This document shows, piece by piece, positions 8,050 through 59,979 of a stretch of 64,000 bases of DNA. The notes beneath the pieces were generated by a model, which saw nothing but the letters and a program-made list of their open reading frames with translations, made no database searches and was not told the DNA's origin. The position numbers were made by a program, and so were the translations under genes. How positions within the stretch are numbered: position 1 is the stretch's first letter; each line of letters begins with the position of its first letter. This DNA is from Leucoraja ocellata (taxonomy: Eukaryota): assembly GCA_036785375.1 (NCBI GenBank), contig JAWMAR010000085.1:7440001-7504000 (forward strand), given 5' to 3'.

Positions 8050-8340
8050 GGGGCTGCACAGCATTGCTGCCTTATAGCACCACTGATGCAGGTTCAATTC
8101 TGACTATGGGTATTGTCTGTATGCAGTTCATACGTTCTCCATGCGACCACGTGGGTTGTGTCCTGGTGCTCCGGTTTCCTCCATGTCCTTAAGATGTGCA
8201 GGTTTGTAGGTTAATTGGCCTCAGTAAATTGTCCCCAGTGTGTAGCATAGAACTGGAGAACGGAATGATCGACGGTCAGCGTGGACTCGATGGGCTGAAG
8301 GGCCTGTTTTCTCACTGTATCTCTCAACTTAACTAAACTT
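8050..8340 (+). mobile_element. HE1-like SINE
   Basis: Same core and (aaact)n tail. Confidence 0.8.
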
Positions 8341-9075: not shown

Positions 9076-9585
9076 AGTTGCCATAGAGGGAGTACAGAGA
9101 AGGTTCACCGGACTGATTCCTGGGATGTCAAGACTTTCATATGAGGAAAGACTGGATAGACTCGGCTTGTACTCGCTAGAATTTAGAAGATTGAGGGGGG
9201 ATTTTATAGAAACTTACAAAATTCTTAAGGGGTTGGACAGGCTAGATGCATGAAGATTGTTCCCGATGTTGGGGAAGTCCAGAACAAGGGGTCACAGTTT
9301 AAGGATAAAGGAGAAATCTTTTAGCACTGAGATGAGAAAACCATTTTTTACAGAGTGGTGAATCTCTGGAATTCTCTGCCACAGAAGGTAGTTGAGGCCA
9401 GTTCATTGGCTATATTTAAGAGGGAGTTAGATGTGGCCCTTGTGGCTAAAGGGATCAGGGGGTATGGAGAGAAGGCAGGTACAGGATACTGAGTTGGATG
9501 ATCAGCCATGATCATATTGAATGGCGGTGCAGGCTTGAAGGGCCGAATGGCCTACTCCTGCACCTATTTTCTATGTTTCTGTTTC
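9076..9585 (+). mobile_element. Young CR1 LINE 3' fragment
   Basis: QRRFT.LIPGM..RLDRLGLYSLEFRRLRG C-terminus with a (ctatgttt)-type tail. Confidence 0.88.
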
Positions 9586-10691
9586 TAGTGTCTATCGTGG
9601 GTTCCAGACATACTTTTAATCCAAGGACTGTAGATTTTACATTAGACTTTAAAGATACAGCACGGAAAGAGGCACAGAGTCCACGCCAAACAGCAATCAC
9701 CCCGTACACTAGCACTAAATTGTCCCTAATGTGTAGGATAGTGTTAGGGTACGGAGTGATCGTCGGTCAGTATGGACAGGTTGGGCCAAAGGGCCTGTTT
9801 CCATGCTGTATCTCTAAATCTAAAAACTAAAACTAAAAACGGGTTATAATGAGTAATCTGTTCATGAATCACTCGTCCACATGCTGTGGCATGTTTGGCA
9901 AGGGTAGAATTTCAGTCCAAGGCTGGTACAATGATGTGTAGTGCAGGGTTGCTGTATGTGTAGTGGTTACCTCGGCAACAGTGCAGACAGAAAGAAAATT
10001 GGGTAAACGATGTGAACAGCAATAGTGTAAAATGTGCTATTCCATACTGACCCGGGTCCCGTGCCTGGGAACGGCCTGAGGAACGGCACTGAACAATGAA
10101 ATGGAACCGCAAAGAGAATTCACTATAAAAAATGCCAAGTAGATCACAACCCAATGGTATGAACACGGAATTCACCAATTTTTTGATAACTAACTATTGA
10201 GTATAGAAGTTGGAAGGTCATGTTGCAGTTATATACAATGTTGGTAAGGCCATATTGAGAATATAGTGTTCAATTGTGGGCACCAGAGTAGAGGAATCGA
10301 GAACCAGAGGGGAGAGGATTAAGGTGAGGGGGGAAAGATTTAATACGAACCAAAGGTTTAAGAAACCTAATTGGAGAGAGTATGTTTAAAGGGATATGGG
10401 CCAAATGCAGGTAGGTGGGTCTAGTATAGCTGGGACATGTTGGGCTGGAGGGCCTGTTTCCACATTGTATGACCCTAACACTATAACCAACAACAACCTC
10501 TCTCCCTGTGCCCTACATGGATGCACACCCATTTCTCCCACTATTCTGCCCCCCTCATTTTCCCTTCTTTCCCGTTCCCCTTCCCCTTCCATCTACATCC
10601 CTTTATCTGGCTTCACAATTCACTTCTCACAATTCTTATCTCATAGCCTTTGTCTCCTTTTTATCTCAGGCCTTTGTTCACCCCTCGGCCA

Positions 10692-10696
<5 letters not shown>

Positions 10697-10739
<43 letters not shown>
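10697..10739 (+). repeat. Poly-C tract (43 nt)
   Basis: Directly visible. Shorter C/G runs lie near 23672, 25697, 32543 and 42781. Confidence 0.95.
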
Positions 10740-11057
10740 ACCTGTATCCACCTATCACTCGTCAGGCTTTGTCCTGCCCTCGCATATACTAGGTTTCTTC
10801 CACCTACTACAATCACTCTGAACAGAAGTTTCCTGACCCGAAACGTCACTTATCCATGTTTTCGGGAAATGCTGCCTGACCCGGTGAGTTACTCCAGCAC
10901 TTTGTGCTTTTTGCTCAATATTCCAAAATCTACAGTTCCCTTGTATCCCAAGAATTCAATGTAAATATCAACACCAGGAAATGCAGATGCTGGTGTCCAA
11001 AAATAGACAGAAAGTGCTGGACTAACTCAACGGTTCGCAGATAAAGTGGGACTCCTT

Positions 11058-11358
11058 TTAGTTTAGTTTATTTTATTATAGAGAAACAGCGTGGAAACAG
11101 GCCCTTCAGCCCACCTAGTCCATGCCGACCAGCGATCCCTGTACACTAGTTCTATCCTGGAGACGGGATGATTTACAGAAGCCAATTAACCTACAAACCT
11201 GTACTTCTTTGGAATGTGGCAGGAAACTGGAGCACCCGGAGAAAACCCCACGCAGTCACAGGGAGAACGTACAAATGCCATGCAGACAGACAGTCAGGAT
11301 CGCACCCGGGTCTCTGGCGCTGTAAGGCAGCAACTCTACCGCTGCGCCACAGTGCCGT
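11058..11358 (-). mobile_element. HE1-like SINE
   Basis: Full-length antisense copy. Confidence 0.85.
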
Positions 11359-12265
11359 CCACAAGGGACTAGTTATAAATTACATCACACAAGGAGATGA
11401 TTATTTAATTATTTGGAGTTTCCCTATTAGTTCCTTCAGTCTCTGAAACACTGGAAACTTGAATCAGTCGATCGTACTGTTGCCAGCATCAGCTAAATAA
11501 CCAAGAGTTGGCAGTATTTTGTTGTCTTGCAACACTGACTCTTATTTGGCACAAAAGTCTGAATAGTGAAGTCAATGCATGACATAACGTCGCAGTTTAC
11601 AGTGAAGACACGGGTCCAAGCAAACTCCTCAATTGTCCATTATCTCTCTCTCTCACACACACACACACGTATATTACAATATGACACAAAGTGCTAGAGT
11701 AACTCAGCGGGTCAGGCAACATCTCTGGAGAAGATGGATAGGTAATGTTTCGGGTCGGGGGCCCTTCTTCAGACTGTTTATGGTGCGGCCGGAGAAAGCT
11801 GAAGGGAGGTGTGGGCATGGCAATGTCTGGTGAGTGATAGGTGGATACAGGGGAGGGTTTGGGGAAGTTTGATTGGCAGATAGGTGGACAAATGTTAGAG
11901 ATGAGAAACAAAAAGTGTGAGATAAGGAGAGAAGAAATGTGAAATGTGAAGCTAGAGGATGGAATATACGTGGAAAAGAGTGGGGGAGGGGAGTTGAGGG
12001 GAAAGGGAGGAATGGGTGCGTGTTCATGTGCATTTGTTCCACCTCCTCCTCTCTTCCACTTTTCTTCCTCCTATTATCACAACCCGACCCAAAGCATTGT
12101 CTATCCATGTGCTCCAGCGATGCTACCTGACCCGCTGAGTTACTCCAGCACATTGTGTCTTCTCTTATGAAACAGCATCTGCGGTTCTTTATATCTCCTA
12201 CAACCTGCTCTTTAGAGATGGGAAAATATTGGACAAGACAATGTTCCTGGTTCTTTTGTAAAATT

Positions 12266-12865
12266 ATAGAAACATAGAAACATAGAAATTAGGTGCAGGA
12301 GTAGGCCATTCGGCCTTTCAAGCCTGCACCGCCATTCAATATGATCATGGCTGATCATCTAACTCAGTATCCTGTACCTGCCTTCTCTCCATACCCTCTG
12401 ATCCCCTTAGCCACAAGGGCCACATCTAACTCCCTCTTAAATATAGCCAATGAACTGGCCTCAACTACCCTCTGTGGCAGAGAGTTCCAGAGATTCACCA
12501 CTCTCTGTGTGAAAAAAGTTCTTCTCATCTCGGTTTTAAAGGATTTCCCCCTTATCCTTAAGCTGTGACCCCTTGTCCTGGACTTCCCCAACATCGGGAA
12601 CAATCTTCCTGCATCTAGCCTGTTCAACCCCTTAAGAATTTTGTAAGTTTCTATAAGATCCCCTCTCAATCTCCTAAATTCTAGAGAGTATAAACCAAGT
12701 CTATCCAGTCTTTTTTCATAAGACAGTCCTGACATCCCAGGAATCAGTCTGGTGAACCTTCTCTGCACTCCCTCTATGGCAATAATGTCCTTCCTCAGAT
12801 TTGGAGACCAAAACTGTACGCAATACTACAGGTGTGGTCTCACCAAGACCCTGTACAACTGCAGT
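12266..12865 (-). mobile_element. Young CR1 LINE 3' fragment
   Basis: ORF 12364-12768 QRRFTRLIPGMSGLSYEKRLDRLGLYSLEFRRLRGDLIETYKILKG..FFTQRVVNLWNSLP, with a (catagaaa)n tail. Confidence 0.9.
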
Positions 12866-13714
12866 TGTATCCAGATCCAGATTGGTGAATGTTTCAACTG
12901 CAGCTTTTATATTTAGCAATAAAATGACAAATTGAATTAATAAACATTTTCAAGTACATTTTTGCATTTTTTAAAGTAATATTTTTCTAAATCCCAATCA
13001 AATAACTACAAATCTCACCCAAGGCAGCTAATAAATGAACACTTTGAAAATGCCATATATAAGTCCCTGAACTAATTTCATCTTCATAAATGAGAAAACT
13101 ATTATCCTTGGAAAGATTGTAGCACCGACTGATACGAGGGTTTGAAGGTTCAAGGCATGAGAAGAGATTGCAAAAGGAGAGTTTTGGTAGATACACCCCT
13201 GAATTTGGAAGATTGAAGGGTGGTCCCATTTTAAAAAATTGATTTAAAGATTCAAGAACATGGCAACAGGCTCTAGGACCCATCGAGTCCATGCTGACCA
13301 TCGAATACCCGCTCACACAATAGTTCTATGTTATCCCACTTCCTTATAGTCCACAGTCCAAAATATTAGTGACAAACTAGGGGCAATTTACAGAGGGCCA
13401 AGTAACCTACAAACCCGTGGGAGTAAACTGGAGAACCTGGCGGGAACTCACGGGGAGAATGTGCAATCTCCACACACACACAGACAGCACCTGAGGTCAG
13501 GATCAAAGCCAGGTCTATGGCATTGTGAGGTAGTAGCTCTATCAGCCGCGCCACCATGCTGCCCTTTAAATGATTATCTGATTTCATCAGTGATATAAAA
13601 AGAAACAACTTTCTTTGATTAAAGAACCCAAGAAAGATTAAATTGGCAGCTCGGTTTCCGAGATGTGAAATCAAAAATCTCTTTACGTTTAGGTTTAGAT
13701 TTATTTACACTTTT

Positions 13715-14005
13715 TAGAGAAACAGAGCGGAAACAAGCCCTTCGGCCCATCGAGTCTGTGCCAACCATCGATCATCACTAGTTCTATCCTACACACTGGC
13801 GACAAATTACAATTTTACCGAAACTAATTAACCTACAAACCTGTACGTCTGTGGAGTGCGGGAGGAAATTGGAGCACCTGGGGAAAACCCAAGTGTTTAC
13901 AGGGAGAATGTACAAACTCTGTACAAACAGCACCCGTAGTCAGGATCGAACCCGGGACTCTAGCGCTGTGAGACAGCTACTCTGGCGCTGCATCACCGTG
14001 CCGCA
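13715..14005 (-). mobile_element. HE1-like SINE
   Basis: Full-length antisense copy; another lies at about 13250-13565. Confidence 0.83.
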
Positions 14006-14639
14006 GCTTATTATTATCACATGATAATAACCAAGATACAGTGAAAAGCATGATGTCCAGTCAGATTAGATAAGACCATACCAAAATACACAGTGGCAAC
14101 CTCATCTCATTCCCTTAAAATATTCATGATTAATATCACCAGATGTTTTTAACAAATACTGGAAATGCTGAGCTTCGGAAATGAAACAGAACTTGTTGGA
14201 AATTCCCAGTAGTTGATTTGTGGTGAGAGGAAAGAAAATAACAAGGCTAATCTCATTGACATCCAGATTCTGCAGATATCTGACAGCTGCCTCAGCTAAA
14301 AAAATTTTTTTTATAATATACGACAAAACAAATGAAAAGACAATGTTCTGTGTGACTGTAAATACTCTGGAATACCGAGCAGCCAGTCTTGCCTCTCTCT
14401 CAGTCGTGTTTCTCATATGGCTCTAATATTGCAGTCCCTGAATTAGTTTAGTTTAGTTAAGTTTACTGTCATGTGTACCGATGTACAGTGAAAAGCTGTT
14501 TGTTGATGCTATCTAGTCCCACCCCTGTCCTTTTAGTTTCCCTGTATCACCCACCACTGATGTCAATAATGCATTTAAAAATACATTTTGGGCAAAAAGG
14601 GTTTAGAGGGATATGGACCAAATGCAGGCGAATGGGGCA

Positions 14640-14950
14640 AATGCTGCCTGTGGCGCAGTGGTAGAGTTGCAGCCTTACATCGCCAGAGTCCCGGGTTCAA
14701 TCCTGAGTACGGGTACTGTCTGTGGAGTTTGTACGTTCTCCCTGTGACCACATGAGGTTTTTTCGGGTGCTCCAGTTTCCACCGGCACTCCAAAGATGAA
14801 CAGGTTTGTGTGTTAATTGGCCTTGGTAAACATTGTACATCGTTCCGTGTGTAGGATAGTGCTAGTGTGCAGGGATCGCTGGTTAGCACGGACTCAGTGG
14901 GACGAAAGGCCTGTTTCCGTGTTATATCTCTGAAGGTTCAAGTCTAAACT
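14640..14950 (+). mobile_element. HE1-like SINE inserted in a CR1 tail
   Basis: Full-length copy with CR1 3' sequence on both sides. Confidence 0.82.
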
Positions 14951-17900
14951 CTTTAAAAAGACATTTGGACAGGGATTGGGTAGGAAGGATTTAGAGGGAT
15001 ATGGGCCAAATGCAGGCAAATGGGATAAGTGATGGCAGCCCAATATGCCAACTTGGTCGGCAAGGACAAGGTGGGCTGAAAGGGCAGTCTCTGTGCAGTA
15101 CAGCTATGTGACTCTATAAATTAGTGATAGGAGTGTTTTCTTCTCTTTTGCATCATTTTGTTTTCACTTTTGCTTCACTTCACACCACTAAATACTTCTC
15201 TTGTTGCTTCTTGTAACAATGGTACTTTTAAATAGGTTTCCGGGAAAATGCATATCAGTAGCCAGTATGACAGGTTTTTATACTTTCCTCAGTTACAAAG
15301 AGGCATAAAATGTACATAATAAAGTCAAACATGTGGGTGTCGAAAAGCAATTGCCACATGCAGACATAATATTATGGGCAAAACACTCAGTGCTGGAGGA
15401 ACTCAGCAGGTGAGGTAGCATTTGTGGAGAGAATGAACAGATTACTTTTCTGGTCAGGACCCTTCTTCACTAATATTTTGGACTGTGGACTGTATATGAG
15501 AACGTGGGATAAGATAGAACTAGTGTGAACAGGTGATCGATGGTTGCCGTGGATTCAGTGGGCCAAAGCTCTCATATGCTGGGGTTGAATTACTCAATCT
15601 TCCATCTACCTCTTTGCTGTTCTTACACTTCTTTCATCTGCATTTTCTCTCTTGCTCTGCAAATTCCCCCTCGTGTGCAGGGAGTGGATGAAAAAGCGGG
15701 ATAACATAGAACTAGTGTGAATGAGTGAGGGTGGTCGGCGAGGACTGGGTGGACCAAAGGGCCTGTTTCCATGCTGTATCTCTAATCTAAACCCGGGCTT
15801 ATGGACGGTCTGTTCAAAAGTCTGTTAACAGAGGGGAGGAAGCTTTTCATGCATAACATCAAGTGATGAAACGGGCATCAAAATGACTGCAGCAGCTGCT
15901 TGTGTGTCTGGATGTTATGTGTAAATTTGTCCATAAAGTAATATAAATGGCCCAGGTGACTCAACCATTGGCAAGCTTCCACAGATTGAAGTCCGTGTCA
16001 GCAGTTGTGAAAGGCAACATGCGCAAGACGCAGTGAAATTCCTTTTCAACTGATCAGATTTGGCGCCGTTTTTACCCCCGGCTAGGTCTTATGGAGAGGC
16101 GCCCATCCAGGGGAGCTCCAGGCTTCTGCAGGGCCTCCAGCCATCGCCTATGTCTGGATCGTCCAATGAACCGTCGTCCCTCTCCTTGCCCTGCCACCTT
16201 TGTGCCCTGTGGCCTTGAGGGCGCAGGAGGGAAGACCCCGGTTCACTTTCCTACCGGCCTTGCTCCTCGTGACTGTCGTCACTGGCTCCCTCCTCTTCGG
16301 TTCTCCGGTCTTCGGGGGATGCGCAGGGCCCAGGCTCGGTGGTTCCACACCCCTCCCCCCACAGACCATGGCCCACCGGGTCTATCTAGGCATGTTCCCA
16401 GTTCCGCGGTGGGCGAGCGAGGCCCGCTGTCGGGTTTGCCCATAATCACCGCGATCCTTCTGCCATGTAGCACACAGACCAGTCTTGCCGCGTCCACTAT
16501 TCAAGGTTGTTTGCTGACTGTCTCTGTTTAGGGAAATAACGCTGTACTTCTCGGCAAGGGAAACCCCAAAGACATAGCTGGAAAGAGTTGTTTGCGGGAA
16601 GACCTGTTTCCAACAGGAATTGCATGTTTCTGGAATGCAGCAAAAGCTTGATTTGGTTATTGGTTGCTATCTCTAACCATATCAGGGTGAGGCCGTCATT
16701 GTTCATGAGTTCGTAAGTTATAGAACCATCCTACCAACACCTAGAGAGCAGACCTGACCTACCATCTTCCTCCATGGAGGCACTCGGACTATCTTTGGTC
16801 TGACTACTGGACTTTATCTTGCACTAAACGTTATTCACATTATTCCCTTTATCCTGTATCTGTACACTGTGGATGGCTCGATTACAGTCATGTATTGTCT
16901 TTCCGCTGACTAGGTAGTGCCTGACAAAAGCTTTTCACTGTACTTCAGTACACGTGACAATAAACAACTCAACTCATAGAAGCAGAAGTAGACTATTCAG
17001 CTCATCGGATTTACTCCGTCATTCAATCATGGCTGATCTATTTTTCCCTCTCAACCCCATTCTCCTGCCTTCTCCCCATATCCTTTGACACCCTTTTAAT
17101 CAAGAACCTGTCAATCTCCATCTGAAAAATACCAAATGTCTTGGCCTCCAAAACTGTCTATGGCAATGATTCACCACCCTCTGACTAAAGAAATTCCCCT
17201 CATCTCCTTTCTAAAGGTATGTCCCTTTATTCTGAGGCTGTGGCCTCTGGTCCGAGACTCTCCCACTAGTGAAAATATCCTCTTCACATTCACTTTATCC
17301 AGGCCTTTCACCAGTCTCGATTCTCCAAATTTACCCATTGCGGAAGTTGGACTTTGTCTCTGGAACTGATGTGCAACAATGCTGAGAACTATATCCTGCA
17401 CTCTATCTTTCTCTTTGCTCTATTATATTTGAGTTTGGCTTGATTGTATTTGTATATACTGTAGTATTAGCTTTTAATTGGATAGCTTGCAAACAAAGCA
17501 TTTCACTGCACACGTGACAAAATAAATCTAAGCCTAAACCACTCATATGCTGGGGATAAATGACCGAATCCTCCAATCTACCTCATTGTGGCCCTTGCAC
17601 TTATTTTACTTGCACTTTCTCCGTAGTTATAACACTATATTCCGCACTCTGTTTATTTCCTCTTTTGATTGATCTGTTGTACTCTTGTATGGTATGAACT
17701 GCCTGGATAACATGCAAAACGCAGCTAATTACTGTACCTGGGTACACGAGACATTAATAAACCTAAACCTGAAAAGTGTCCTGAAATTTCCATAGTAATT
17801 AGCCACAGTTACTATCATCGTAGCAGTGTGTTTATGACATCACCCCCCCCCCCCCTTCTTTAAGCAAACCAGCATTGTGTCAAAGGTTATGGGGAGAAGG

Positions 17901-20017
17901 CAGGAGAATGAGGTTGAGAATGAAAGAGATCAACCATGATGGAATAACGGAGCAGACTCAATGGGTCGAATGGTCTAATTCTGTTCCCATGACATGAACT
18001 TAAGAACTTATAACATAAAGGTTTGAAACTTATCATGAGTGGAACTATTTGTTTAAGAAGGAACTGCAGATGCTGGAAATTCGATGGTAGACAAAATTGC
18101 TGAAGAAACTCAGCGGGTGAGGCAGCATCCATGGAGTGAAGGAAATAGATCTAGGCGGTCCAGTAAACATAATTCCAGCAAGCAGGCAAGAGCTTTGAGG
18201 TGTAATTATAATAATGAGTGAATCACTCTAGCAACAAAGCAGCTTAACTAAAAATATAAAATTACAAGTCTGCTGCTTCCTCCAGCTTCACAATTCACAA
18301 CTCTTCAATCCTTTAGTCTCCCACCTTCTGTCTTTTCAGCTCAGGCTTTTGTCCAACCAGTTGACTATCAAAAACCCTCCTCACCTGTATCAAATTATTA
18401 CTTAAGATAGACACAAAGTGCTGGAGTAACTCAGTGGGTCAGGTAGCATCCCTGGAGAAAACGGATGGGTACCATTTTGGGCGGCGGTGCCTGGCAGGTA
18501 GGGAGGCTGGCCAGGGAGCGTGTGATTTCAAGAGAAAGAATGTGGAGAATTGTTTCCATTTTTTACTTGCCAGGCTTTGTCCTGCCTCTCCTCTTTTCCA
18601 GATTCATTCCCCCTTCCCTCCTCCCATTACAATCAGTCTGAAGAAAGGTCCTAACCCGAAACATCACCAATCCATGTTCTCCTGAGATGTTGCCTGACCC
18701 ACTGAGTTAACCCAGAACTTTGTGTCTTGTTTTGTAAACCAGCACTTGCGGTTCCTTGTGTTGCCATGTTTACAATATTTCTTTTAAATTTTAGTTTGGA
18801 GATACAGCGTGGAAACAGGGCCTTCGGCCCAAAGAAACCCCGTCGACCAGCGATCACCCAGACACTAGAGAATCTACAAATGGCGTACAGACAGCATAGT
18901 CAGGATCGAACTTGGGTCCTTGGAGCAGTATGGCAGCAACTCTACCGCTGCACCACCATGCCGCAGTTTATTATTATTAAATGTGCCAAGATACAGTGAA
19001 AAACATATTACCCAATCAGTTTAGATAATACTATACCATAATATGCAGTGGCAACTTCAACGCATTCCTTTAAAATGTTCATGATTGATATCACCAGATG
19101 TTTTTAACATAAATACTAGAAATGTCGGGCTTCTGCAATGAAACAGACCGTACAAAAATCCGAACAGACAGCACGCGAGGTCAGAAACAAACCTGGATTT
19201 CTGGCGCTATAATTCTACCGCTGTGCCACTGTGCTGCCCCAACTTGTTTCTTGTTTCTTATCAAGATAGACTAAAGCAGGACTGTGTTTGTTGACTCTGA
19301 TGTGTGAAGGTCACTCTAAACTACTCCGCACCAAAATAACACACAATCAACATGATTTTCAGCATAACCTTGTACTTGTCTTGTCAGGCACTGCTGAATG
19401 GCGTAGCCTCTATCCTCAATGGAGAGAATTTTAACCCCAGAAATAGGCACTTTAGGGGCAGGTGAGGCTTGCAATTAGTTTATGACTGTGATTGCGTGAA
19501 CATATGTGAACATATGATGAGCGTTTGACCGACTGAATGAGCCGAATGGCCTAATTCTGCTCCAAGAATATATGAATTTATGAACTAATTGCAGATTAGC
19601 AGCATTTATCTTTTCCCCTTTGAGACAAAGAAGACCTAGCAGTCAAAGTCGAGAAGTGATTTGACTTGAAACATCACCTACGATGTTCTCAAGGGATGTT
19701 ATCTGACCCCCTGAGTTACTACAGCACGTTGTGTCCTACTTTGTAAATCAACATCTGCAGTTCCTTGCTACTACAGCCAAATCATGTATTGCATGCAACT
19801 GGGCAGATATTGATGCAATTAATATTTTCAGGATACCAATTGATTTGTTTTATTGATACAGCATGGAAACAGACCCTTAGGCCTACCGAGTCCACGCTGA
19901 TCATCAATCACCCCTTCACATTAGTTCCATGTGATCCCACTTTCACATCCACTCCCTACACACTATAGGCAATTTTTCAGAGGCCAATTAACCTACAAAA
20001 CCCACATGTCTTTGGAA

Positions 20018-20312
20018 TTAGGTTTAGGTTTAGAGATACAACATGGAAACAGGCCCATCGGCCCACTGAGTCTGCGCTGACCAATGATCACACGTACACT
20101 TGTTCTATCCTACACACAAGAGGCGATTTACAGAGGGCCAATTAACCTACAAACCCACACGTATTTGAAATGCGGGAGGAAACCGGAGCACCTGGAGGAA
20201 ACCCACGGGGTCACAGGGGGGACGTGCAAACTCCACACACAGACAACACCCGAGGTCAGGATCGAACCCGGGTCTGTGGTGCTGTGAGGCAGCGGTTCTA
20301 CCAGCTGCGTCA
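20018..20312 (-). mobile_element. HE1-like SINE
   Basis: Antisense copy with a partial copy at 19855-20015. Confidence 0.82.
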
Positions 20313-20860
20313 TTGTTTATTTAAACATAAATGTTGAGTTGCATAGCTTTGGGAATGACTATGCGTGGATTTAATGCCACCTTAGCAACTACAGGGTTAA
20401 GCAGTCAAGTCACTCAGTTACCAACAAGGTTGCAGAGGCCTATATGTACTGGAATAGAAATCGACCTCACACAAAATATTCAAATCAATAACCACACTCC
20501 CAGGTCTTTAATCTTCATTATCAGTATGAAGTGCAACTGTTAAACCCTTGTATCTGTGAGTAACTGTATGGTGCAGGAAGGAACTGCAGATGCTGGTTTA
20601 AACCAAACATAGACACAAAAAGCTGGAGTAACTCAGCGGGTCAAACAGCATCTCTGGTGAATAGGAATAGGTGATGTTTCAAGTCGAGACTTTTCTTCAG
20701 ACTGGTTATTCCAGCTTTTTGTGTCCATCTTTGGTGACTGTATGGACTTGTTTGTGAGCACAATGAAGAACAATGCAGAAACAAGGAACTGTAGAAACAC
20801 GGCTAGACAAAAATGCTGGAGAAACTCAGCGGGTGAGGCAGCATCTATGGAGCGAAGGAA

Positions 20861-20900
20861 ATAGGCAACGTTTCGGGTCGAAACCCTTCTTCAGACTGAT
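20861..20900 (-). ncRNA. Putative minimal hammerhead ribozyme in a Penelope terminal repeat
   Basis: Reverse complement is aucagu-CUGAAGA-a-GGGU-uucg-ACCC-GAAA-C-GUU-gccuau. The core and stem II are intact; stem III is reduced to palindromic ACGU. Activity is untested. Confidence 0.6.
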
Positions 20901-21209
20901 GTTAGGGTGGGGGGGGAGAAGAAAGGAAGAGATGGAGCCAGTGGGCTGACGGAGAGCTGAGAAGGGGAGGAGAAAGTAGGGACTACCTGAAATTAGAGAA
21001 GTCGATCTTCATAACGCTGGGGTGAAACACATATCGGCACAGCTGGTAGAGAACCTACAAACTCTGTACAGGCAGCATCTGTAGTCAGGATCGAACCCAG
21101 ATCTCTGGTGCTGTAAGGCACCATCTCTACTGCTGCCCCACCGTGCCGCCCCTAAATTTTTTGTCTATATTTTGCCCCTAAATCTCAGAAAGTATCACAG
21201 CCAATGATA

Positions 21210-21615
21210 AAGAAAGAACTGCAGATGCTGGAAAAATCGAAGGTAGACGGAAAAAGCTGGAGAAACTCAGCAGGTGAGGCAGCATCTATGGAGCGAAGGA
21301 ATAGGCGACATTTTGGGTCGAGACCCTTCTTCAGACTGATGTCAGGGGGAGGGGGGGGAGAAAGGAAGAGGCGGAGACAGTAGGCTGTGGGAGAGCTGGG
21401 AAGGGGAGGGGAAGGAAGGAGAAAGCAGGGACTACCTGAAATTGGGGAAGTCAATGTTCATACCACTGGGGTGTAAACTACCCAAGCGAAATACGAGGTG
21501 CTGTTCCTCCAATTTGCGACTCACTCTGGCCATGGAGGAGGCCCAGGACAGAAAGGACGGATTCGGAATGGGAGGGGGAGTTGAAGTGTTGAGCCACCGG
21601 GAGATCAGGTTGGTT
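21210..21615 (-). mobile_element. Penelope-like retroelement 3' fragment (GIY-YIG C-terminus plus terminal repeat)
   Basis: QPDLPVAQHFNSPSHSES.LSVLGLLH.QSE..LG..GMNIDF followed by the terminal repeat containing ctgaagaagggtctcgaccc. Confidence 0.85.
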
Positions 21616-21809
21616 ACATTTACAATGAAAAGATTTCGAGAACTGTAAAAGGTATAGTAACATTATAAACAAATATCCTTTAGCATTTCCTCATTGACTG
21701 TGTCAAAAGTGAATATTGTTGTAGGTTTATTTATGCATCATATCCACAGATGCACTAGTATCAACTAAGAGAATGTTTGATTGTAATATGTACCGACAAT
21801 GGAACATTG

Positions 21810-22120
21810 AGATGAGGCTCTCACAAGGGTCTCCTCGATATCCCGCAGCTCCGCTCTTACTCCCCCTCCCGCTCTCGTAACAAGGAGAGTCCCCCTTATC
21901 CTCACCTTCCACCCCATCAGCCGTCGTATACAACATATAATCCTCCAACATTTTCACCACCTCCACAGGAATCCTACTACAGGTACTGGCCCCTTCTTCC
22001 CATCTCCACCCCTTTCTGCTTTCCGCAGAGACCGTTCCCTCCGTAACTCCCAGGTCAACTCGTCCCATCCCACCCAAACCACCCCCTCCCGAGGTACTTT
22101 CCCCTGCAACTGCAGGAGGC
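21810..22120 (+). mobile_element. Penelope-like RT-endonuclease linker fragment
   Basis: Manual translation ERVPLILTFHPISRRIQHIILQHFHHL and PPLSAFRRDRSLRNS..GTFPCNCR. Confidence 0.78.
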
Positions 22121-23039
22121 AGGAGTGAAACCAAAAGGATAAAGAGTTGCGGACTGTGAAACGGAGGAAGGAATGTAGGTGGAGGGTGAGGGGGAAGGAT
22201 GAAACTGCTGCAAGGGCAGCCAGGGTTCAGGGGGGGAGGAGAGGGAAGTGAAAGGTGAGGGGGAAGGAGGGTGTTTGTGGATAAGTTCCCCTAAAATAAA
22301 ATTAATTGCCTAAAATAAAAAGTCCACATTTGTGATCGGTGTGAAACAAAGAGGTTTAAAGGTCTATTTCACTGTATTTGTGGTCAGCAAACATGGGTCC
22401 CTATCCAAACGTTTCCTATCCATCTTCTCCAGAGATTCTGCCTGATCCGCTGAGGTACTCCAACACTTTTTTTGTAAACCGGCATCTGCAGTTCCTTGTA
22501 TCGCAGCTTCGACACTCAATTCCCTGACTGATCAAGTCCCGTATGCCAAAAGTCTTCTTCACTTGCAACGTTACTTTCAGGGAATTATGTACTTAGACCC
22601 TCTGCTCTACAACACTCCCCGCGGCCCTACAGTTCATTGTGAAGGCTCTGTACCGGCTTGGCTTCTCAAAATGCAACATCTCACTCTTATCTGAATTAAA
22701 CTCCATTAGCCATTCATTAATCTCTATCTATTCCCTTAACTCCCTTTCCACCCAGGATGTCATTATTCAGCTATTAGGAAAACTCTAGGCACTAGAAATT
22801 GTTCCATCTTTTCTTTGGGGTCAGTTTGGGTCACTCTAATCCTGTTTATAGAAGTTAAAATCAGCCTGCAACTTCAACAGTGAGATTCACAGAACGACAT
22901 TGCTGGGTTTCCGTGCATAATGCAGTGCTGAGGCTGACGTTAATTTGTTGTGGCATTCCCTATTCTTGCAAATTCTCACAGTTGTCAATGTTTCACTCCT
23001 GCTATCATTACAGCCTGGACTTAAAGAGACATACCACAA

Positions 23040-24115
23040 CGGCACGGTGGCCTAGCGGTAGAGTTGCTGCTTTAAAAAGCTTACAGCGCCAGAGACCCAG
23101 GTTCGATCCTGGCTATGGGTGCTCTCTTCATGGGGTTTGTACGTTCTCCCTGTGACTGCATACGCTTGCTCTGTCATATTTGGTTCCCTCCCACACTCCA
23201 AAGACGTACAGGTTTGTAGGTTAATTGGCTTATATAAATGTAAAATTGTCACTAGTGTGCGTAGGATAGTGTTAATGTGCGGGGATCGCTGGTCGGTGCG
23301 GACACAATGGGCAGAAAGGCCTGTTTCCGCTCTGTATCGTTAAACTAAACTAAATTCATGCAACACACAGCTACAGGGAAGTGTTGCTATCGATTGAATG
23401 AATACTGAAACTGTCCAGGGCAGTACGGTTCGCAGAGGTAGAGTTGATGCCTTGCAGCGCCAGAGGCCTGGTTCGAACCCGGCTACGGGTGCTGTCTGTA
23501 TGGAGTTTGTACATTCTCCCCATGACCGTGTGGGTTTTCTCCGAGATCTTCGGTTTCCTCCCACATTCAAAGACGTGCAAGTTTGTAGGTTAATTGGCTT
23601 GGTATAAATGTAAAATTGTCCTAGTGTGTGTAGGATAATGTTAATGTGCGGGGATTGCTTGTCGGTGCGGTGGGGGGGGGGGGGGGGGGGGGGGAGGGGA
23701 AGGGGCTGTTTCCACGCTGTATCTCTAAATTAAACTAAACTCACGCAACACACAACTCCAGGAACGTGCTGCTACCGAATGAATGGATACCGCAACTGTT
23801 GCCAGTCAAATGTCTTACAGCGCCAGAAACCCGGGTTCGATCCTGACTACAGGAGCTGCCTGTAAGGAGTTTGCACGTTCTCCCCGTGACCGAGTGGATT
23901 TCCTATGGTGCTCAGTATCCTCCCACATCCCAAAGGCATGCGGGTTTGTAGGTTAATTTGGCTTCTGTAAAATTGCCCCAAGTTGGGAGTGGATGAGAAA
24001 GGGCGATAACATAGAATTAGTGTGAGTGGGTGTTCGATGGGCCGGTGTAGACTCAATGGACAGATGAGACTGTTTCCACGTTGCATCTCCAAAACTAAAA
24101 ACTAATCTAAAACGT
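23040..24115 (+). mobile_element. Three head-to-tail HE1-like SINEs separated by a repeated spacer of about 62 bp
   Basis: SINEs at about 23040-23353, 23419-23740 and 23813-24115; spacers at 23356-23418 and 23741-23800. Confidence 0.85.
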
Positions 24116-27100
24116 AAAGTGTACTTAATTGTCATTGGTACCTATCAACTGAGCCATCCTATCAACAACTCAAGAGCAGTTCTGAGCTACTATCTAAGTC
24201 ATTGGAGACCTCAGACTATCTTTAATCGGACTTTACTGGACTTTATCGTGCACTAAACGTAATTCCCTTTATCCTGTATCTGTCCATTGTGGATGACTCG
24301 ATTGGAATCATGTATAGACTTTCTGCTGACTGCTTAGTAGGCAATAAAAACGTTTCACTGTACCTCAGTACACGTGACAATAAACTAAACTAAACTAATG
24401 GACAATGAAATTATTTCCTATAGCAGGGTGACCAGAACTGAAACACAATGCTACAAGTATGACCTCAGCAGCATCTTGTACAACTGTCCCATTACTGCAG
24501 TATTTCAGGCCTGTAAAAACTATACGCAGAGATAGGATAATAAACAAAAAATATCAATAAATGAATAACCGACTAGCGCACAATAACTCAAAGTCCTGGG
24601 TATTACCAAAGGCGACCATCGTTCATAGTTGAGGTTAGTGTGGTATGGTGTTCAAGAGCTTGATGGTTGCTGGGAAGGAGCTGCAGTCTGAAGAAGTCTC
24701 GACCCGAAATGTCACCTATCCATGTTCCCCAGAAATGCTACCTGACCCGCTGAGTTACTCCAGCATTTTTTGACCTTTTGTGTATTGGACGTCATCTGCA
24801 TTTCTTTGTCTCTGCACTCTGTTCTTGAACCTGGAGGTGACAGTTTTCATACTCCTGGACCTTCTTCCGATGGCAGGAGAGAAATGAGAGCGTGGCCAGG
24901 GTGGTGTGTGTCCTTGATGATGCCTTTTTAGAGGTGGTGGGAGGTCAAGACCTGTGATGGACCGCTAATCTCCTTCGTTCCTGGTCGTTTGATTTGCCAA
25001 ACCATGATTCACCAAGTCAATATGGCTGTAGAATTTCAGTCACCCTCCAAGGTATTAGTCAAAAAATGACTGTGCACTGTTTTACCAAGTTAGTTATTGA
25101 AATGCAAGATGTTCTGTGCCAGTGGAAAAGGCACATCAAATACAATGATTCGTGCAAATTCTCACAGCTGTCAACGTTTAACTACTGCTATCTTTGCAGG
25201 CTGCTCTTAAAGGGACTTACCACACTCACACAACACACAGCGACAGAGAAGTGTTGCTACTGAATGATTGGATATTGCAACTGTCCAGAATCAAGTGCAT
25301 TTAATTGTGGGATGTACCGACAACGGAACAATTAAATTCTTTCCTCGAGCAGCACTGTGGCACAGCGGTAGAGTTGCTGCCATTACAGCGCCAGACCCGG
25401 GTTCGATCCGGACCACGGGTCCTGTGTGTAGGGAGTTTGTACTTTCTCCCTGTGACCGCGCAGGTTTGCTCCGGGTGCTCCGGTTTCCTCCCACACTCCA
25501 AAGACGTGCAGGTTTGTAGGTTGATCGGCTTTGGTACAGGCTTGTAAATTGTAATAGGGATCGCTAGTCAGCATGGATTTGGTGGACCAAAGGGCCTGTT
25601 TCCACACTATCGCTGAAACTAAAACTAAACCTGCTTCTAGTTCCTTTGTTCATATTGCAATTCATAACAGAGATAGAGCATTAACTCCGGGGATTGGGGG
25701 GGGGGGGGGGTGGGGGGGGAGGTGCTTAACGTCTAGTGTGTAGGGAGTGGATGTGATAGTGGGGGTAACATAGAACTAGTGTGAACGGGTGATGGATTGT
25801 CGGCATGGACTCGATGGGCGAAGGGCCTGTTTTCCATGCTGTATTTCTCTGAGCTCTAAACAAGGTTTTATTCTTTATCCTGTGTCTGTACACTGTGGAC
25901 GGCATGATTGTAATCATGTATAGTCTTTTTGCTGACTGGAAAGCATGCAACAAAAAAGCTTTTTCCTGTACCTCGGTATACCCGACAACCATAATAAACG
26001 AAACTTTTACATTCTTGTGAAGTCACTTATCTGAAATGGCAGCTCCTGCCTGCAATACAGATTGTTATAATAATACTCCTCAGTGATCAGATAGATGATA
26101 ATGCTGGGGAAGTTTGCACTATTCAACTTTGGAAGAAGTGAACACTTTTTGAAGGGAGTAAAAGACACAAGGCAAATGAAAAGAAATTAAACTAGAGCAA
26201 GGCAAGGAAGCAAGTTCAAACTAGTAGAAGTCAGGTCCAATATTCAAGCCAGGAAACTGTCACTCAAACAATGTGTGAACAATGCTTTGTATAGAGGTCC
26301 AGGTAAATCCAGATATAACGATCCAGGTAAACGGATGAGGAGCAGTGAATGTCCTGATTGAGAGCAGACAAAATTTAGCAGAAGGAAGAGTTAAGAAAAA
26401 CTGAATATAATAAAAAGGATTGATGGTTTATACCTAGAAGCTGGTTTATACCCAGATGCTGGTTCATACTCAAGATAGACACAAAATGCTGAAGTAACTC
26501 AGCGGTTCAGGGCAGCATCGCTCGCAAATTGGATAGGTGGTGTTTCAGGTCGGTACCCTTCTTCAGACGTATGTTTTGATCAACATAAAAATTTTATGAC
26601 AGACACAGCATTCATACAATCACCCAAACACTAGTTCTATCCTACACACTAGGGACCATTTACAGAAGCCATTAAACTTACAAATCTGCACGTCCTTGGG
26701 ATGTGGAGGAAACTGGAGCACCCGGAGAAAACCCCACACGGTCATAGGAAGAACGTGCAACCTCTGTACGGACAGCACCCGAGGTCAGAATCGAACGTGG
26801 GTCTCTGGCGCCGTGAGGCAGCAGCTCTACCGCTGTGCCACCTCAAACCTGATGGTCATCCTTGTATATATAACTCTGCACACAATATCAGCCAAACAGC
26901 TCAGCAAAGATTACAAGAATATTAAGGCTGTCAAAGTGAAATGATTTCGACAATTTTATTGTGCTATTTATAGTAAGTGATATTTTAGTTTAGAGATATG
27001 GCATGGAAAGACAGTATTTTGTACACTTTATAGGGTCTATATAACCAGCTGTCTTTTCCTTTTTGCTACAAATAAACCGGTTATTTACAGGAAGGCATAC

Positions 27101-27132
27101 ACACAAAACCAATGCAGTGACATTGGGCGTTT

Positions 27133-27430
27133 GGGTGGCACAGTGGTGCAGCAGTAGAGTAGCTGCTTCACAGCGCCAGAGACATGGGTTCGATCCTGAC
27201 TATGGGTGCTGTCTGTGAGTTCTCCCTGTGACTGCTTGGGTTTCCCTGGATGTTCAGGATTCCTCCCACATTCCAAAGACGTACAGGTATCTAAGTTAAT
27301 TCGCTTCAATAAAATTGTAATTTGTCCGTAGTGTGTAGGATGGTGCTGTGTACGAGGTGATCGCAGGTCGGCGCAGACTCGGTGGGCGATAGGGCCTGTT
27401 TCCGCGCTGCATCTCTAAAGTATCTCTCAA
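27133..27430 (+). mobile_element. HE1-like SINE
   Basis: Full-length. Further copies lie at about 25348-25630, 26620-26842 (-), 28628-28940 and 29310-29850 (-). Confidence 0.83.
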
Positions 27431-28986
27431 ATACTGAGTATAATTTAACAAGCTGTGTATAGTGTTAATGCTTGGCCAACAGTGCCATACACTCGAGTTC
27501 CAAACTTTAATTTGTTTCAAATTAACTTTATTTCAAATTGTTTCAAATCAATGACTTGTCCCACCCGGTCATTCCTTCTTCTCCCCGCTCCCACCCAGCA
27601 GAAAATACAGAAGCTTGAGAGTACACACAACAGACTTAGGAATAGCTTTTTCCCCTCTGTTATCAGGTTTCTGAATGGTCCTTCCTTAAGCTAGGGTACT
27701 GTCCAATTCACCGCTACCCCATTGCGGGCATTGGACTTTGTCTCTGAAACTGATACGCTACATTGCAGAGAATTATACTCTGCACTCCGTATCTTCCCCT
27801 CTGCGCTACCTATTGTACGTGAGTTTGGCTAGTTTGTAGCTTTTCTGTCTACCTATTAAGATTTAATAGGAACCCGAGGGGTAACTTATCATTCAAAGGG
27901 TGGTAGGTGTATGAAAGGAGCTGCCAGAGGAGGTAATTGAGGCACGTATAATCGCAACGTTTAAGAAACATTTAGACAGGTACATGGATAAGTTGGTTTA
28001 GTGGGAAATGAGTCAAATGCAGGCAGGTGGGACTAGTGTCGGTGTAGGCAAGTTGGGCACAAGGGCCTGTTTCCACACTGTATGATAATGTCAATTACGA
28101 CATTTGGATTGACATATAGATAGGAAGGGTTTAGAGGGCTATGGGCCAAATGCAAGCAAATGGGACTAGCTCCATGTGCCAAGTTGGTTGGCATGAACAA
28201 GGTGGGCTGAAGGGCCTGTTTCCGCCCATGGCTCCATGACAGATCACCTAATTTTGCTGCCAGTTATAGTGTCGAGATAAAACGTATGTCCTTGTACATT
28301 TTCCTCTGCATGAGAAAGCAGATAATTTCTCCGCACTTCCTAAGGTCAAATGGCTGAATCTGTAACAATTCCTCAGTGCAGCTGGCACTTAAAGATAAAG
28401 CAGGAACATTTACCAGCATGACCTACCCTAGTCCGAAACCCGAGAAAGCAAAAATTAGAGACAAAAATAGCAAGACCATTGATTGAACAAAATTCAAAAC
28501 TTAACACTACGAACTCCAACTAAACTCTGACATACAAACTGTCCTATGTTGCAAAAAGGACTTTGAGCTTTCTTTTGTTTTGGACTAATATATATTTATA
28601 TTTATTGAACTTTTTTTTGTTTAGCTCAATAGCACAGTGATAAAGTTGCTGCCTCACAGCCCCAGAGACCTGGGTTCAACCCTGACTGTGGGTGCTGTCT
28701 GTACGGAGTTTGTACATTTTTCCTGTGGCCATGTGGGTTTTCTGTTTTTTCTGGACCATGGGTGCTCTGGTTTCCTTACACACTCTAAAGATGTACAGGT
28801 TCATAGGGTAATTGGCTTCAGTAAAAATTGTAAATTGTCCCTAGTGTGTAGGATGGTGCTGGTGTACAAGGATCGGTGGTCGGCATGGACTCGGTGGACT
28901 AAAGGGCCTGCTTCTGCGCAGTAAACTAAAAAGTAAACTAATGTGTTATCTATGATTATAGTCTTATCGTATAGTATTATAGTGTT

Positions 28987-29023
28987 ATCAGTCTGAAGAA
29001 GGGTTTCGGCCCGAAACGTCGCC
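28987..29023 (+). ncRNA. Putative minimal hammerhead ribozyme in a Penelope terminal repeat
   Basis: aucagu-CUGAAGA-a-GGGU-uucg-GCCC-GAAA-C-GUC-gcc, with a GUC cleavage triplet. Confidence 0.55.
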
Positions 29024-30169
29024 CCGCTGCACCCGCTGTGTTTCTCCAGCATTTTTGTGTACCTTCAATCTTCCAGCATCTGCAGTTCCTTCTTGAACAC
29101 TGTTATCTATGATTACTGTGTTTACAGACTTGCAATGCTGCTGCAAGTAAGAATTTCATTGTTCTATTTAGGTACACAAGACGATAAAACACTTTTGACT
29201 CTTGGCCCTCAGCAGTGCTGCCTGATCTGCTGAATTACTCCAACTCATTCTTTTGTAAACCAGTATTTGCAAGTCCTTGTTTCAACACACTCAACACTTT
29301 GTGTATTTTTAGTTTAGTTTTATAGATATAGCATGGAAACAGACCGTTGGGCCCAACAAGTCTGCGCCCACCATCGATCTCCCATTCACACTAGTTCTAC
29401 ATTATCCCACTTTCTCATCCACTCCCTACACACTAAGGAACAATTTACAGAGACCAATTAACGTACAAACCTGCACGTATGGGATGTGGGAGAAAACCAG
29501 AGTATCCAGAGAAAACCCGCGCGGTCACAGGGAGAACGTGTAAACTCCACGCACAGACAGCACCCAAGGAGAAATTTATTTAGTCAGAGGGTGGTGAATC
29601 TGTGGAATTCATTGCCACAGATGGCTCTGGAGACCAAGTCATTGGATATTTTTAAAGCGGAGATTGACAGGTTCTCGATCAGCAAGGGTGTCAAGGGCGA
29701 GAAGGCAGGAGAATGGGGGTTGAGCAGAGAAAGGTAGATCAGCCATGGTCGAATGGCAGAGCAGACTCGATGGTCCAATGGCCAAATTCTCTTCCTATGT
29801 CTTATGGTCAGGATCGAACCTGGGGTGCTGTGAGGCAGCAACTCTGCCAGTTGTTTTAATACATATCCCACTTTAATACAAATCAAACTGTTGCAGGGGT
29901 GAAGTAACAATGTAGCACATGTGTACATTTGTAACAAGAAGCAGTAGTGGAGTCCCACAGGGATTGAGGCGGGAGGGAAGAAACCGAGAGGAGGCAGAGG
30001 GAGGGGATGTGGGGAGGAATGGAAGGAAAGAAGGAGGGAATGGGGGTGAGTGAGAGGGAGGGAGAACGCAGGGGGAAAGGAGAGAGAGGCGGGAGGGAAG
30101 GAGAGAGAGCATGGGACGGGAGGAGAGGGGAGAGAGAGAGGGAGGGAGGGAGCAAAGATCCTAGAGAGA

Positions 30170-30560
30170 GGTGGGAGTGAAGGAGAGTAGGCGGGGAGAA
30201 GGTGGAGGAGGCGGAGAGAAGGTGGAGATCCGCCGCCTCCTGCCCGCTCCCATTACCTGTCGGGCTGGCAGCGCAGCGGTTCCCAGCAAAGATCTTTGGT
30301 TCCCAGCGTTGTGTGTTCCCTCCCGGCCGTCGGCGAGCGCGGCTTGTTCTCTTGGGGGAGGTTTGATTCAGGTTCAGTGTCTGCAGCGAGCGGCGGAGCG
30401 GGAGATCGCCCCATGGTGCGGGGAGCGACACCGGGATCCCGGGCGTGAAGCCGGGGGAGAGAGAGAGACTGCGAGAGGCGAGGCGAGGCCATCCCGGCGG
30501 GACATGCGGCGCTCCGCCGCGATCCTCCTACTGCCGGCCCCTGCTCTGCGGTGAGTCTGG
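30170..30560 (+). promoter_or_regulatory. CpG-island promoter and 5' UTR of PTGFRN
   Basis: High GC and CpG density compared with the rest of the window. It contains the leader exon and is flanked by purine-rich tracts. The TSS is not determinable. Confidence 0.75.
30504..30550 (+). CDS. PTGFRN: PTGFRN exon 1 coding part (signal peptide); apparent +1 frameshift in CCCC run at 30538-30541
   Basis: gacATG in CpG-rich DNA followed by a consensus donor G|GTGAGT at 30551. It reads MRRSAAILLLPA. Removing one C gives MRRSAAILLLPALLC-G, phase 1, which joins exon 2 (GLTLG/RVVKVP) as a typical signal peptide. Confidence 0.72.
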
Positions 30561-30824
30561 GGGAGAAAGGGAGGATAGAGAAGAGGATGAGGGGGAGGAT
30601 GAGAAGGGGAGGGGGGGGGGGGGGGGAGAGAAGGAGGGGAAGAGGGAGGTGGAGAATGGGGAAAGAGGGTGGAGAAAGGGAAGTAAAGAGAGTGAGAGAA
30701 GGAGGAGAGGGAGAGGGAAAGAGGAAAAGAAAGCGGAGGGAGGGAGAAATTGAGAATGGGCGTGCAACTGGGGGGAGGTGGAGAGACGGTGTTGTGAGAC
30801 TCCAGGCCGGCGGGCGGGCGGGTC

Positions 30825-31024
30825 NNNNNNNNNNNNNNNNNNNNNNNNNNNNNNNNNNNNNNNNNNNNNNNNNNNNNNNNNNNNNNNNNNNNNNNNNNNN
30901 NNNNNNNNNNNNNNNNNNNNNNNNNNNNNNNNNNNNNNNNNNNNNNNNNNNNNNNNNNNNNNNNNNNNNNNNNNNNNNNNNNNNNNNNNNNNNNNNNNNN
31001 NNNNNNNNNNNNNNNNNNNNNNNN
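30825..31024. other. Assembly gap (200 N)
   Basis: Run of exactly 200 N; the true size is unknown. Confidence 1.
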
Positions 31025-42374: not shown

Positions 42375-42458
42375 GGTTATAGCTTCGGAATAAGAGGACG
42401 CAAATTAGGGGAATTTTCTTCAATCAGAGGATGGTGAATCTGTGGAATTAATTTCCAC

Positions 42459-47045: not shown

Positions 47046-47059
47046 AAATATATGTTATC

Positions 47060-59966: not shown

Positions 59967-59979
59967 GTAATCTCTTCCT

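Follow-up and report, generated by a model that had tools for sequence, protein, structure and literature searches.

Short hammerhead-bearing repeats in a 64-kb region of Leucoraja ocellata as probable 3′-end copies of an autonomous Penelope-like element

Hammerhead motifs in the window

The window, i.e., the whole stretch of 64,000 nucleotides that was analysed, carries a hammerhead-like motif recurring on both strands, as had been noted originally. With up to 5 substitutions allowed, 29 matches were obtained; exactly three had no mismatch, at the sites where intact copies were expected (20867-20894 (-), 28993-29020 (+) and 57158-57185 (-)), and the motif was present at 13 of the 13 sites claimed to hold degenerate copies. 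A profile search gave 73 matches in the window, or 72 without one duplicate, occupying 6,900 bp (10.8%), and in all, intact copies numbered 3 and those that are decayed or partial ~70 (Table 1). A descriptor using only the structure of the minimal hammerhead matched nine times, as against 0-1 matches in each of 20 shuffles. In the whole 3.44-Gb genome, exact 31-mers of the young motif numbered 33,344 (0 for the reversed control), and the 33-mer directly 3′ of the motif had 91,452 exact matches. Positions within copies are given relative to C3 of CUGAAGA (= 0), which in the focal copy is window position 20894 (-); cleavage is predicted between +27 and +28.

Table 1. Copies of the Penelope-like element (PLE) and their features in the window
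Feature	Position	Strand	Remarks
Intact minimal hammerhead core	C3 20894 to H17 20867	(-)	CUGAAGA, bulged A, 4-bp stem II with UUCG, GAAA, ACGU, U17
Predicted cut, focal copy	between 20867 and 20866	(-)	inferred from standard hammerhead numbering
TCAGT directly 5′ of core	20895..20899	(-)	invariant in six subfamily consensuses
G-2, main 5′ stop of the family	20896	(-)	G-2 and U-1 form the sole contiguous stem I pairs
Focal copy, 5′-truncated PLE end	20801..21024	(-)	blastn of the L197 unit against the window
Older copy	21210..21621	(-)	GIY-YIG C-terminal remnant 21438-21621, decayed hammerhead 21307-21334, tail
ORF fragment, aa 987-1088 of P0001, orientation reversed	21811..22119	(+)	tblastn
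Old copy, Zn-linker and GIY-YIG remnant 47528-48230, decayed hammerhead 47087-47114	47057..48230	(-)	
Short copy, starts ~6 nt before C3, intact core, ends at L	28986..29100	(+)	
Head-to-head pair	57097..57349	both	intact core 57158-57185 in the minus arm, which ends near S; plus arm terminates at L
Head-to-head pair joined inside stem II, arms near S and at L	60755..60947	both	
Young copy starting ~4 nt 3′ of the predicted cut, ending at L	18052..18148	(-)	
~60 further older short copies	87..62295	both	profile matches

The core sequences CUGANGA, GAAA and NUH were accompanied by a bulge and a palindromic 15.2-16.2 pair, which together make up a minimal type I hammerhead. Both the additional A that follows A9 and an ACGU without a loop were found as expected. 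The UUCG loop on stem II was likewise present, but its closing pair is U-A or U-G, not the C-G pair that closes the stable cUUCGg form. Stem I consists of 2 contiguous pairs only. An Rfam scan of the window returned no hammerhead match at E <= 5, and those Rfam microRNA matches that were checked lay on hairpins or inverted pairs, all under the cut-offs.

The original interpretation was right in that the motif is a minimal type I hammerhead, derived from Penelope, with a stem III that only two molecules together could form. The proposed novelty of the system did not survive comparison with the literature, since the motif, the bulged base after A9 and the palindromic 15.2-16.2 pair have already been described for metazoan PLEs (Cervera and de la Pena 2014, PMC4209133). 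According to that description, the minimal hammerheads, which include those of fish Neptune elements, share with the present one the same core, the bulge between 9 and 10.1, the G10.1-C11.1 pair, the lack of loop 3 over the palindromic 15.2-16.2 pair, the location in the pseudo-LTR and the occurrence mostly as single, dispersed, truncated copies. Differences are found in stem length (4 bp in stem II and 2 bp in stem I here, versus 7-8 and 4-5 bp in the Schistosoma examples) and in copy number (more than 33,000 exact copies here, versus ~4,000-9,000 in coelacanth and Xenopus) (PMC4209133).

The focal copy comprises the last codons of an ORF, a pyrimidine tract, the hammerhead and a spacer, and terminates at the short 3′ end S. 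Remnants of GIY-YIG coding sequence were confirmed at 21438-21621 (-) and 47528-48230 (-), the second one extending beyond the span that had been assigned to it; another repeat interrupts the latter copy near 47166-47330. The short copy at 28986..29100 has a ~20-nt deletion 3′ of the cut site, a 15-bp target duplication and ~30 nt of filler, and the pair at 57097..57349 has a 39-nt re-read duplication (57186-57224) in its plus arm and a target duplication of ~14 bp.

The parent element

Walking upstream from long copies recovered an RT-GIY-YIG ORF and then full-length elements. The autonomous parent is intact, with a 3.93-kb unit and a 1,217-aa ORF encoding RT and GIY-YIG; at locus L197, two hammerheads 3,934 nt apart flank this ORF, which is uninterrupted. 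Intact ORFs were seen in 3 of 10 long loci (L197, L200 and L202), and 3 of the 10 look like duplicates of one insertion. The unit begins with the hammerhead (0), followed by S (~+93), a 35-nt tail, a further 3′ end L (~+131), the 5′ UTR and the ATG (+164), after which come RT, GIY-YIG, the pyrimidine tract and the next hammerhead. Three of six independent full-length elements reaching the tail begin at ~S.

The encoded protein, P0001, contains DKG, an RT with YIDD, a CX4CxxC linker (CNRKRCNTC), GIY-YIG and CCHH (CSRC, then two His). The Pfam matches to RVT_1 (E 8e-5) and GIY-YIG (E 0.012) were weak and under the curated cut-offs; homologues at E <= 1e-20 numbered 973, with identities of up to 54%, and a PDB sequence search with P0001 gave no match. 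A single ORF with a PLE-type RT and, at the C terminus, GIY-YIG is the make-up of an EN+ PLE, and the EN+ layout was found too: partial tandem pseudo-LTRs, an inverted truncated copy, a one-sided tail and target duplications. Judged by the CX2-5CxxC linker and CCHH, the clade pattern is that of Neptune/Nematis, the linker being common to Nematis. Elements of this group, as characterised by Craig et al. 2021 (10.1101/2021.04.23.441226) and Arkhipova et al. 2013 (PMC3846280), share with it RT, a CX2-5CxxC linker, GIY-YIG with CCHH, and DKG, and likewise show partial tandems, an inverted 5′-truncated copy, a one-sided tail and target duplications. At 1,217 aa, ~320 aa of them in a proline-rich spacer, the present ORF exceeds most of the listed relatives (mostly 700-960 aa) in length. 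This spacer (residues ~165-490 of P0001, L197:2780-6433) lies between the N-terminal region and RT, and most of the listed relatives are shorter overall by 250-500 aa. At L199, L200 and L205, a young full-length element was noticed to have inserted into an older member of the family, within the spacer of the repeat unit, with duplication afterwards.

It had been suggested that most copies in the window form a non-autonomous, retrozyme-like family. Against this, most of them are colinear with the pseudo-LTR of the intact element and are dispersed as singles or head-to-head pairs; they grade into ORF-bearing and full-length elements and do not constitute an independent non-coding family. Tandem units of 150-450 nt with a hammerhead in each, as in retrozymes, were absent from the window and were seen in a few arrays elsewhere (L327-L330). 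The repeats are very probably 3′-end copies of an autonomous PLE with a known minimal hammerhead in its pseudo-LTR, the short ones being likely abortive cDNAs and not a separate retrozyme family.

3′ ends of the copies

Copies end at two discrete points, S and L, and target duplications, frequent at the flanks, measure ~9-17 bp. In the short head-to-head pairs that were read, one arm ended at S and the other at L in 7 of 7; among the loci reaching past the tail (see below), L302 and L320 have S on both arms. These ends, which match the internal two-site initiation of an anole PLE, correspond to the known PLE tail. In that element, Poseidon PAc of Anolis carolinensis, two internal RT starts bound a tail ~90-135 nt 3′ of the hammerhead, as here, RNA beyond the start sites is needed and both strands are primed, to which the present element can be likened (Frangieh et al. 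2024, PMC11167929). The two differ in that the present element combines a Neptune/Nematis-type linker with an ATG after the tail, whereas the ATG of PAc is described at stem II (PMC11167929). By our model, the element protein would bind RNA downstream of the tail and prime RT internally at S or L from nicked DNA, and priming of both strands would give the head-to-head pairs.

It was also noticed that AGAUGCUG near +47 (window 20830-20850 (-)) is complementary to CAGCAUCU in the tail (e.g., 21220-21235 (-)). A helix between the two, enclosing S, was predicted for all six subfamilies (see below) together, and may be an RT-binding structure.

5′ ends of the copies

The 5′ ends were read in 97 copies from the first 100 matches listed for the 33-mer; without 11 segmental duplicates, 86 remained, a sample confined to young subfamilies and to the initial 4.9 Mb of a single contig. 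As an aside, the segmental duplicates (11/97 sampled copies) lie in the first 3 Mb of contig C1, many of them in opposite orientation. The starts (n = 86) were distributed as follows: 25 reach at least 250 nt upstream, 12 are at -249 to -7, 26 at -6 to 0, 15 at +1 to +10, 4 at +11 to +27 and 3 arms (2 events) at +28, with a single start beyond that. Roughly 30% of the young copies start no more than 6 nt before the core, chiefly 2 nt before it, and ~2% at the predicted cut. Among the copies reaching C3, 26 of 63 stop at -6 to 0, compared with 12 of 37 over the next 243 nt, a per-base rate 47-fold higher. Genome-wide, the first mismatch was at -1 in 2,594 copies, at -3 in 5,107 and at -4 in 3,061, and CAGT continued in 18,901; many copies of the -4 class take their A from the target duplication. 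The main stop is G-2, which by our estimate accounts for about 25% of young copies. Several copies have the target duplication followed directly by GTCTG, and many old copies in the window align from about the same start, the profile extending just 12 nt upstream.

The sequence at this edge, TCAGT, is presumably initiator-like. A physical RNA 5′ end at ~G-2, above all a transcription start at the Inr-like TCAGT, appears reasonably likely, the overall chances of a start site being about even. Many templates would then have their 5′ end at ~G-2, where RT would run off after 95-135 nt and leave the short copies. A cap-derived extra G at this end was rejected, as the base before GTCTG, scored by eye in the first 100 matches listed, was C in ~37, G in ~34 and T in ~29, with no excess of G. 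On inspection, a Pol III SINE starting at -2 was rejected for its internal T run, and an HDV-like ribozyme at -2 because the fold has no room.

An intron-like arrangement was observed at window 20897-21010 (-), where a pyrimidine tract ends in CAG right before the core and a GT-type donor is present near the stop codon. In Drosophila Penelope, an intron ends at helix I (PMC4209133, PMC2377424), and the promoter is internal and TATA-less with the start upstream of an intron (PMC2377424). A search of 1.07 Mb of loci for splicing from the candidate donor found no junction, nor was one seen among the joints listed for RNA of a related organism, and a spliced-RNA origin of the -2 end is not supported.

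Permuted units and tandem arrays

A pattern spanning the tail and 5′ UTR had 164 exact matches in the genome; the first 100 matches listed gave 81 loci, or 75 loci reaching past the tail after removal of 6 repeats. In 58 of these 75, permuted mini-units or arrays were found, in which a point y at the ORF start is bluntly joined to an upstream point x and the sequence then runs to S or L. Termination at S or L applied to 57 of the 58, a flanking match of at least 8 nt was present in 42, and 17 loci had at least 2 junctions (two to four). Distinct junctions numbered 56, two mis-called ones being excluded: y was at +186 to +299 in 54 of them, 46 share at most 2 nt and 6 share at least 7 nt. The point x was mostly at -283 to -17; five loci had it at ~-2 and three at +28/+29. 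Unrelated points (~-130, -183 and -50) have junction clusters comparable in size to that at the cut. Back-splicing and lariat origins were rejected, as 0 and 1 of the 56 junctions, respectively, fit them.

Two loci were informative as to the template. L332 (G000:C188:3671484-3672013) has an inverted arm and three forward passes inside one 14-bp target duplication; all four passes stop at +28, the predicted cut, and re-entry is at +199 and +201. At L299, re-entry took place at +226/227 three times, from different points. These junctions point to a linear RNA with a fixed end that was re-entered by RT, as a covalent circle could give neither. We suggest that RT at the template end would sometimes jump to a 3′ end in the ORF start, 55-170 nt past L, and recopy the same RNA; that this yields the permuted units and small arrays within one insertion is probable. 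Repeated template re-entry is a likely route to retrozyme-like arrays. Long copies would be made from RNA that runs on across the hammerhead, be it as read-through tandems or as ligated circles. The minimum of +186 for y may, by analogy with PAc, reflect the stretch of RNA that the protein needs.

The arrays could alternatively be rolling-circle copies of covalent RNA circles (ligated fragments) or result from DNA-level duplication after insertion, which we consider rather unlikely. Circles have been proposed for PLEs (PMC4209133), and several observations fit them: identical junctions recur up to four times, the units of L327 differ at 0 positions, one junction is common to both arms of an inverted insertion in L302, L310, L321, L329 and L334, and first units often start near S, as they would after one full round. 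Repeated identical junctions (L327, L328 and L329) and those common to both inversion arms fit either precise jumps or a covalent circle. On the other hand, successive rounds differ in their junction in L299 and L332, and whole arrays, with the inverted arm included, lie within a single target duplication, which speaks against later DNA duplication as the source of the junction. Counting against our own model, the inverted arm continues well beyond the forward arm's junction in 4 loci (L319, L328, L336 and L351). Both routes, circles and jumps, may be in use, re-entry of linear RNA by RT being the reading that we prefer for the arrays in general.

Later passes also bear on the stop at G-2, which, with a similarly low probability, might reflect, with no RNA end involved, a pause of RT on long templates or else a preference for nicking or joining there at the near-palindrome TCAG-T-CTGA. 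In five molecules whose first pass had crossed -2 and gone far upstream, the second pass stopped near -2 (at -7 to +5; L336, L345, L370, L372 and L375), fold-back junctions use the palindrome TCAG-T-CTGA, and the cap-derived G is absent among the first 100 matches listed, all of which a pause would accommodate. However, where the template is known to reach upstream, stops near -2 have about a third of the frequency, with 5 in ~35 later passes (crossings counted by hand) versus 26 in 63 first passes (p ~0.007); this deficit speaks for a distinct population of RNA with its end at -2 rather than for a universal pause. Moreover, in L297, L314 and L364, RT re-entered from ~-2 to a downstream 3′ end and then stopped at ~-2 again, and the blunt joins and short re-primed pieces at G-2 look like run-off.

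Tandem arrays were observed at L327, L328, L329 and L330, with units of 372, 241, 291 and 236 nt and an intact hammerhead in each full unit, and these are candidate newborn retrozymes. Retrozyme-like arrays are rare, with 164 versus 91,452 exact matches. They resemble the animal non-LTR retrozymes (PMC7229834; Li et al. 2026, bioRxiv 2026.07.22.740005) in having units, of 173-372 nt, that stem from a PLE pseudo-LTR and carry the hammerhead or its 3′ part. The copies in the window differ from animal retrozymes as described in PMC7229834 in not being tandem and in having a minimal, not a canonical, hammerhead. The present arrays, lying inside single target duplications, look as if born at insertion, whereas Li et al. 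suggest post-insertion local amplification (bioRxiv 2026.07.22.740005). Bacterial DRT2, in which one RNA segment is copied repeatedly into tandem cDNA (PMC12039810), offers a likeness.

Repeated copying of an RNA segment is also known from end-to-end jumping by R2 RT and from repeat addition by telomerase. Unlike in DRT2, R2 and telomerase, the re-copying here is deduced from genomic copies only, is imprecise and rare, and resembles a by-product of transposition.

The predicted cut site

Truncations at the cut were counted with patterns having a transversion at the base before +28, +27 or +29, 30 matches of each being inspected. The patterns gave 1,004, 671 and 799 matches, respectively, and the upstream hammerhead was lacking in 22/30, 5/30 and 18/30, from which ~740 truncations were estimated at +28, ~110 at +27 and ~480 at +29, although internal deletions, or fold-backs at a palindrome (GGCC), are among those counted. 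The step from +27 to +28 is clear, at about six-fold (p = 2e-5 on the sample fractions), but +28 is not in excess of +29 (p = 0.41), and the peak at the cut is a modest one. Truncation at the cut is ~1/10 as common as at -2, an estimate for which the denominators differ. Exact joins at +28 occur in L332, L320 and L017, and L332 provides the best single hint of cleavage in vivo.

When 422 copies were clustered on the sequence 3′ of the cut, six subfamilies emerged, with 28-108 members and a divergence of 2-19%, two clusters with 4 and 5 members having been set aside; the older clusters are 10-20% from their own consensus. The six consensuses do not differ in CUGANGA, the bulge or GAAA, and H17 (U/C) is the sole variable base of CGUH, compared with 10 invariant positions in the next 20 nt. 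The block +48 to +85 is well kept too (29 of 38 columns), indicating that conservation is not peculiar to the ribozyme. Changes in stem II are one-sided, from U-A to U-G, and no two-sided compensatory change was seen across the six consensuses. In folding calculations, pairing probabilities were <=0.001 for stem I and <=0.045 for stem II, and a dimer in the hammerhead fold had ~-6 kcal/mol versus -21 to -49 for the best dimer fold; the hammerhead is thus predicted to be disfavoured both as a monomer and as a dimer, in agreement with reports that other PLE hammerheads have low activity or depend on protein (PMC4209133, PMC11167929).

RNA of a related organism (three raw-read runs and one contig run, oligo-dT or single-cell) had no start or end peak in its reads, which come mostly from passive copies. 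Read depth was in the thousands over +10 to +135 versus less than ~40 over the ORF start, and most reads run into unrelated sequence.

That the hammerhead is catalytically dead here, and retained as a promoter or protein-binding sequence, would accord with the two-pair stem I, the unfavourable folding, the want of compensatory change and the weak peak at the cut site, as well as with insertion of the anole PLE in vitro without cleavage (PMC11167929) and with the 8 of 9 Xenopus dimers reported as uncleaved (bioRxiv 2026.07.22.740005). We nevertheless think it improbable, given that all catalytic core bases are invariant in the six subfamilies with variation at tolerated positions only, and that truncations rise at +28 and joins fall exactly there as described above. 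Somewhat better than even are the chances that the hammerhead cleaves just a small minority of the templates, likely with help of the protein and as a dimer; it would thereby contribute the few ends at +28.

Origin of the short copies and relation to known systems

The remaining alternative is a self-propagating non-autonomous retrozyme or SINE, i.e., short, ribozyme-cut, circularised RNAs transcribed from short copies and retrotransposed in trans. Most window copies do lack coding sequence and have a common sharp 5′ boundary, there are tandem arrays of 173-372 nt whose units are nearly identical, a few junctions recur at separate loci (~-50/+250 in L298, L317, L329 and L346; -130/+241 in L327 and L372), and vertebrate retrozymes are reported to be derived from PLE pseudo-LTRs (bioRxiv 2026.07.22.740005), but the idea is very unlikely to be right, for 1) short copies, ending as they do at S or L, are without the sequence to at least +186 that is present in all 56 re-entry junctions, RNA beyond the start sites being required by the anole PLE too (PMC11167929), 2) few copies start at the cut, 3) array junctions are mostly unique and away from the cut, and 4) arrays occur at no more than 164 places, against 91,452 for the 33-mer. 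Derivation of the short copies from the autonomous PLE is the explanation retained here.

The motif, the type of family and the insertion layouts are already known or canonical, and the family itself may already be catalogued in Dfam or Repbase. In the literature searched, whose scope was text outside subscription journals and figure-only supplements, no account was found of this PLE family, of a pile-up at -2 or of re-entry arrays. The PAc study, in its account of insertion, has no reads at the cut site and, in the text covered, describes no 5′ pile-up or re-entry arrays (PMC11167929). Among the questions presented as open in PMC11167929, PMC4209133 and bioRxiv 2026.07.22.740005 are the tandem and inverted insertions of PLEs, the role of the hammerhead and the origin of animal retrozyme arrays. 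Tens of thousands of near-identical young copies, along with intact ORFs, make each step countable at base resolution, and statistics on ends and junctions render such questions about PLE replication directly testable. What is added here is the junction record of permuted units and arrays at 58 of the 75 loci past the tail. Tentatively, and with somewhat less than even confidence, we propose that the copies are a fossil record of the PLE cycle, in which RNA starts at the 5′ edge of the hammerhead, RT primed a short way downstream makes a strong-stop-like cDNA, which is inserted unless the telomerase-related RT re-enters the RNA repeatedly at a protected 3′ end to give retrozyme-like arrays in a single step, and a few percent of the templates are cut in vivo.

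Other features of the window

A second abundant short repeat of ~110-165 bp, which is the one at 47166-47330 inside the old PLE copy, is present at more than 20 other sites. The segment 21050-21155 (-) resembles what we take to be a tRNA-like SINE head; ARAGORN detected no tRNA genes in the whole window. An assembly gap of 200 N is located at 30825-31024. A near-perfect hairpin of 200 bp at 5276-5477, unrelated to the PLE family and with a sub-threshold Rfam microRNA match, is possibly a MITE.
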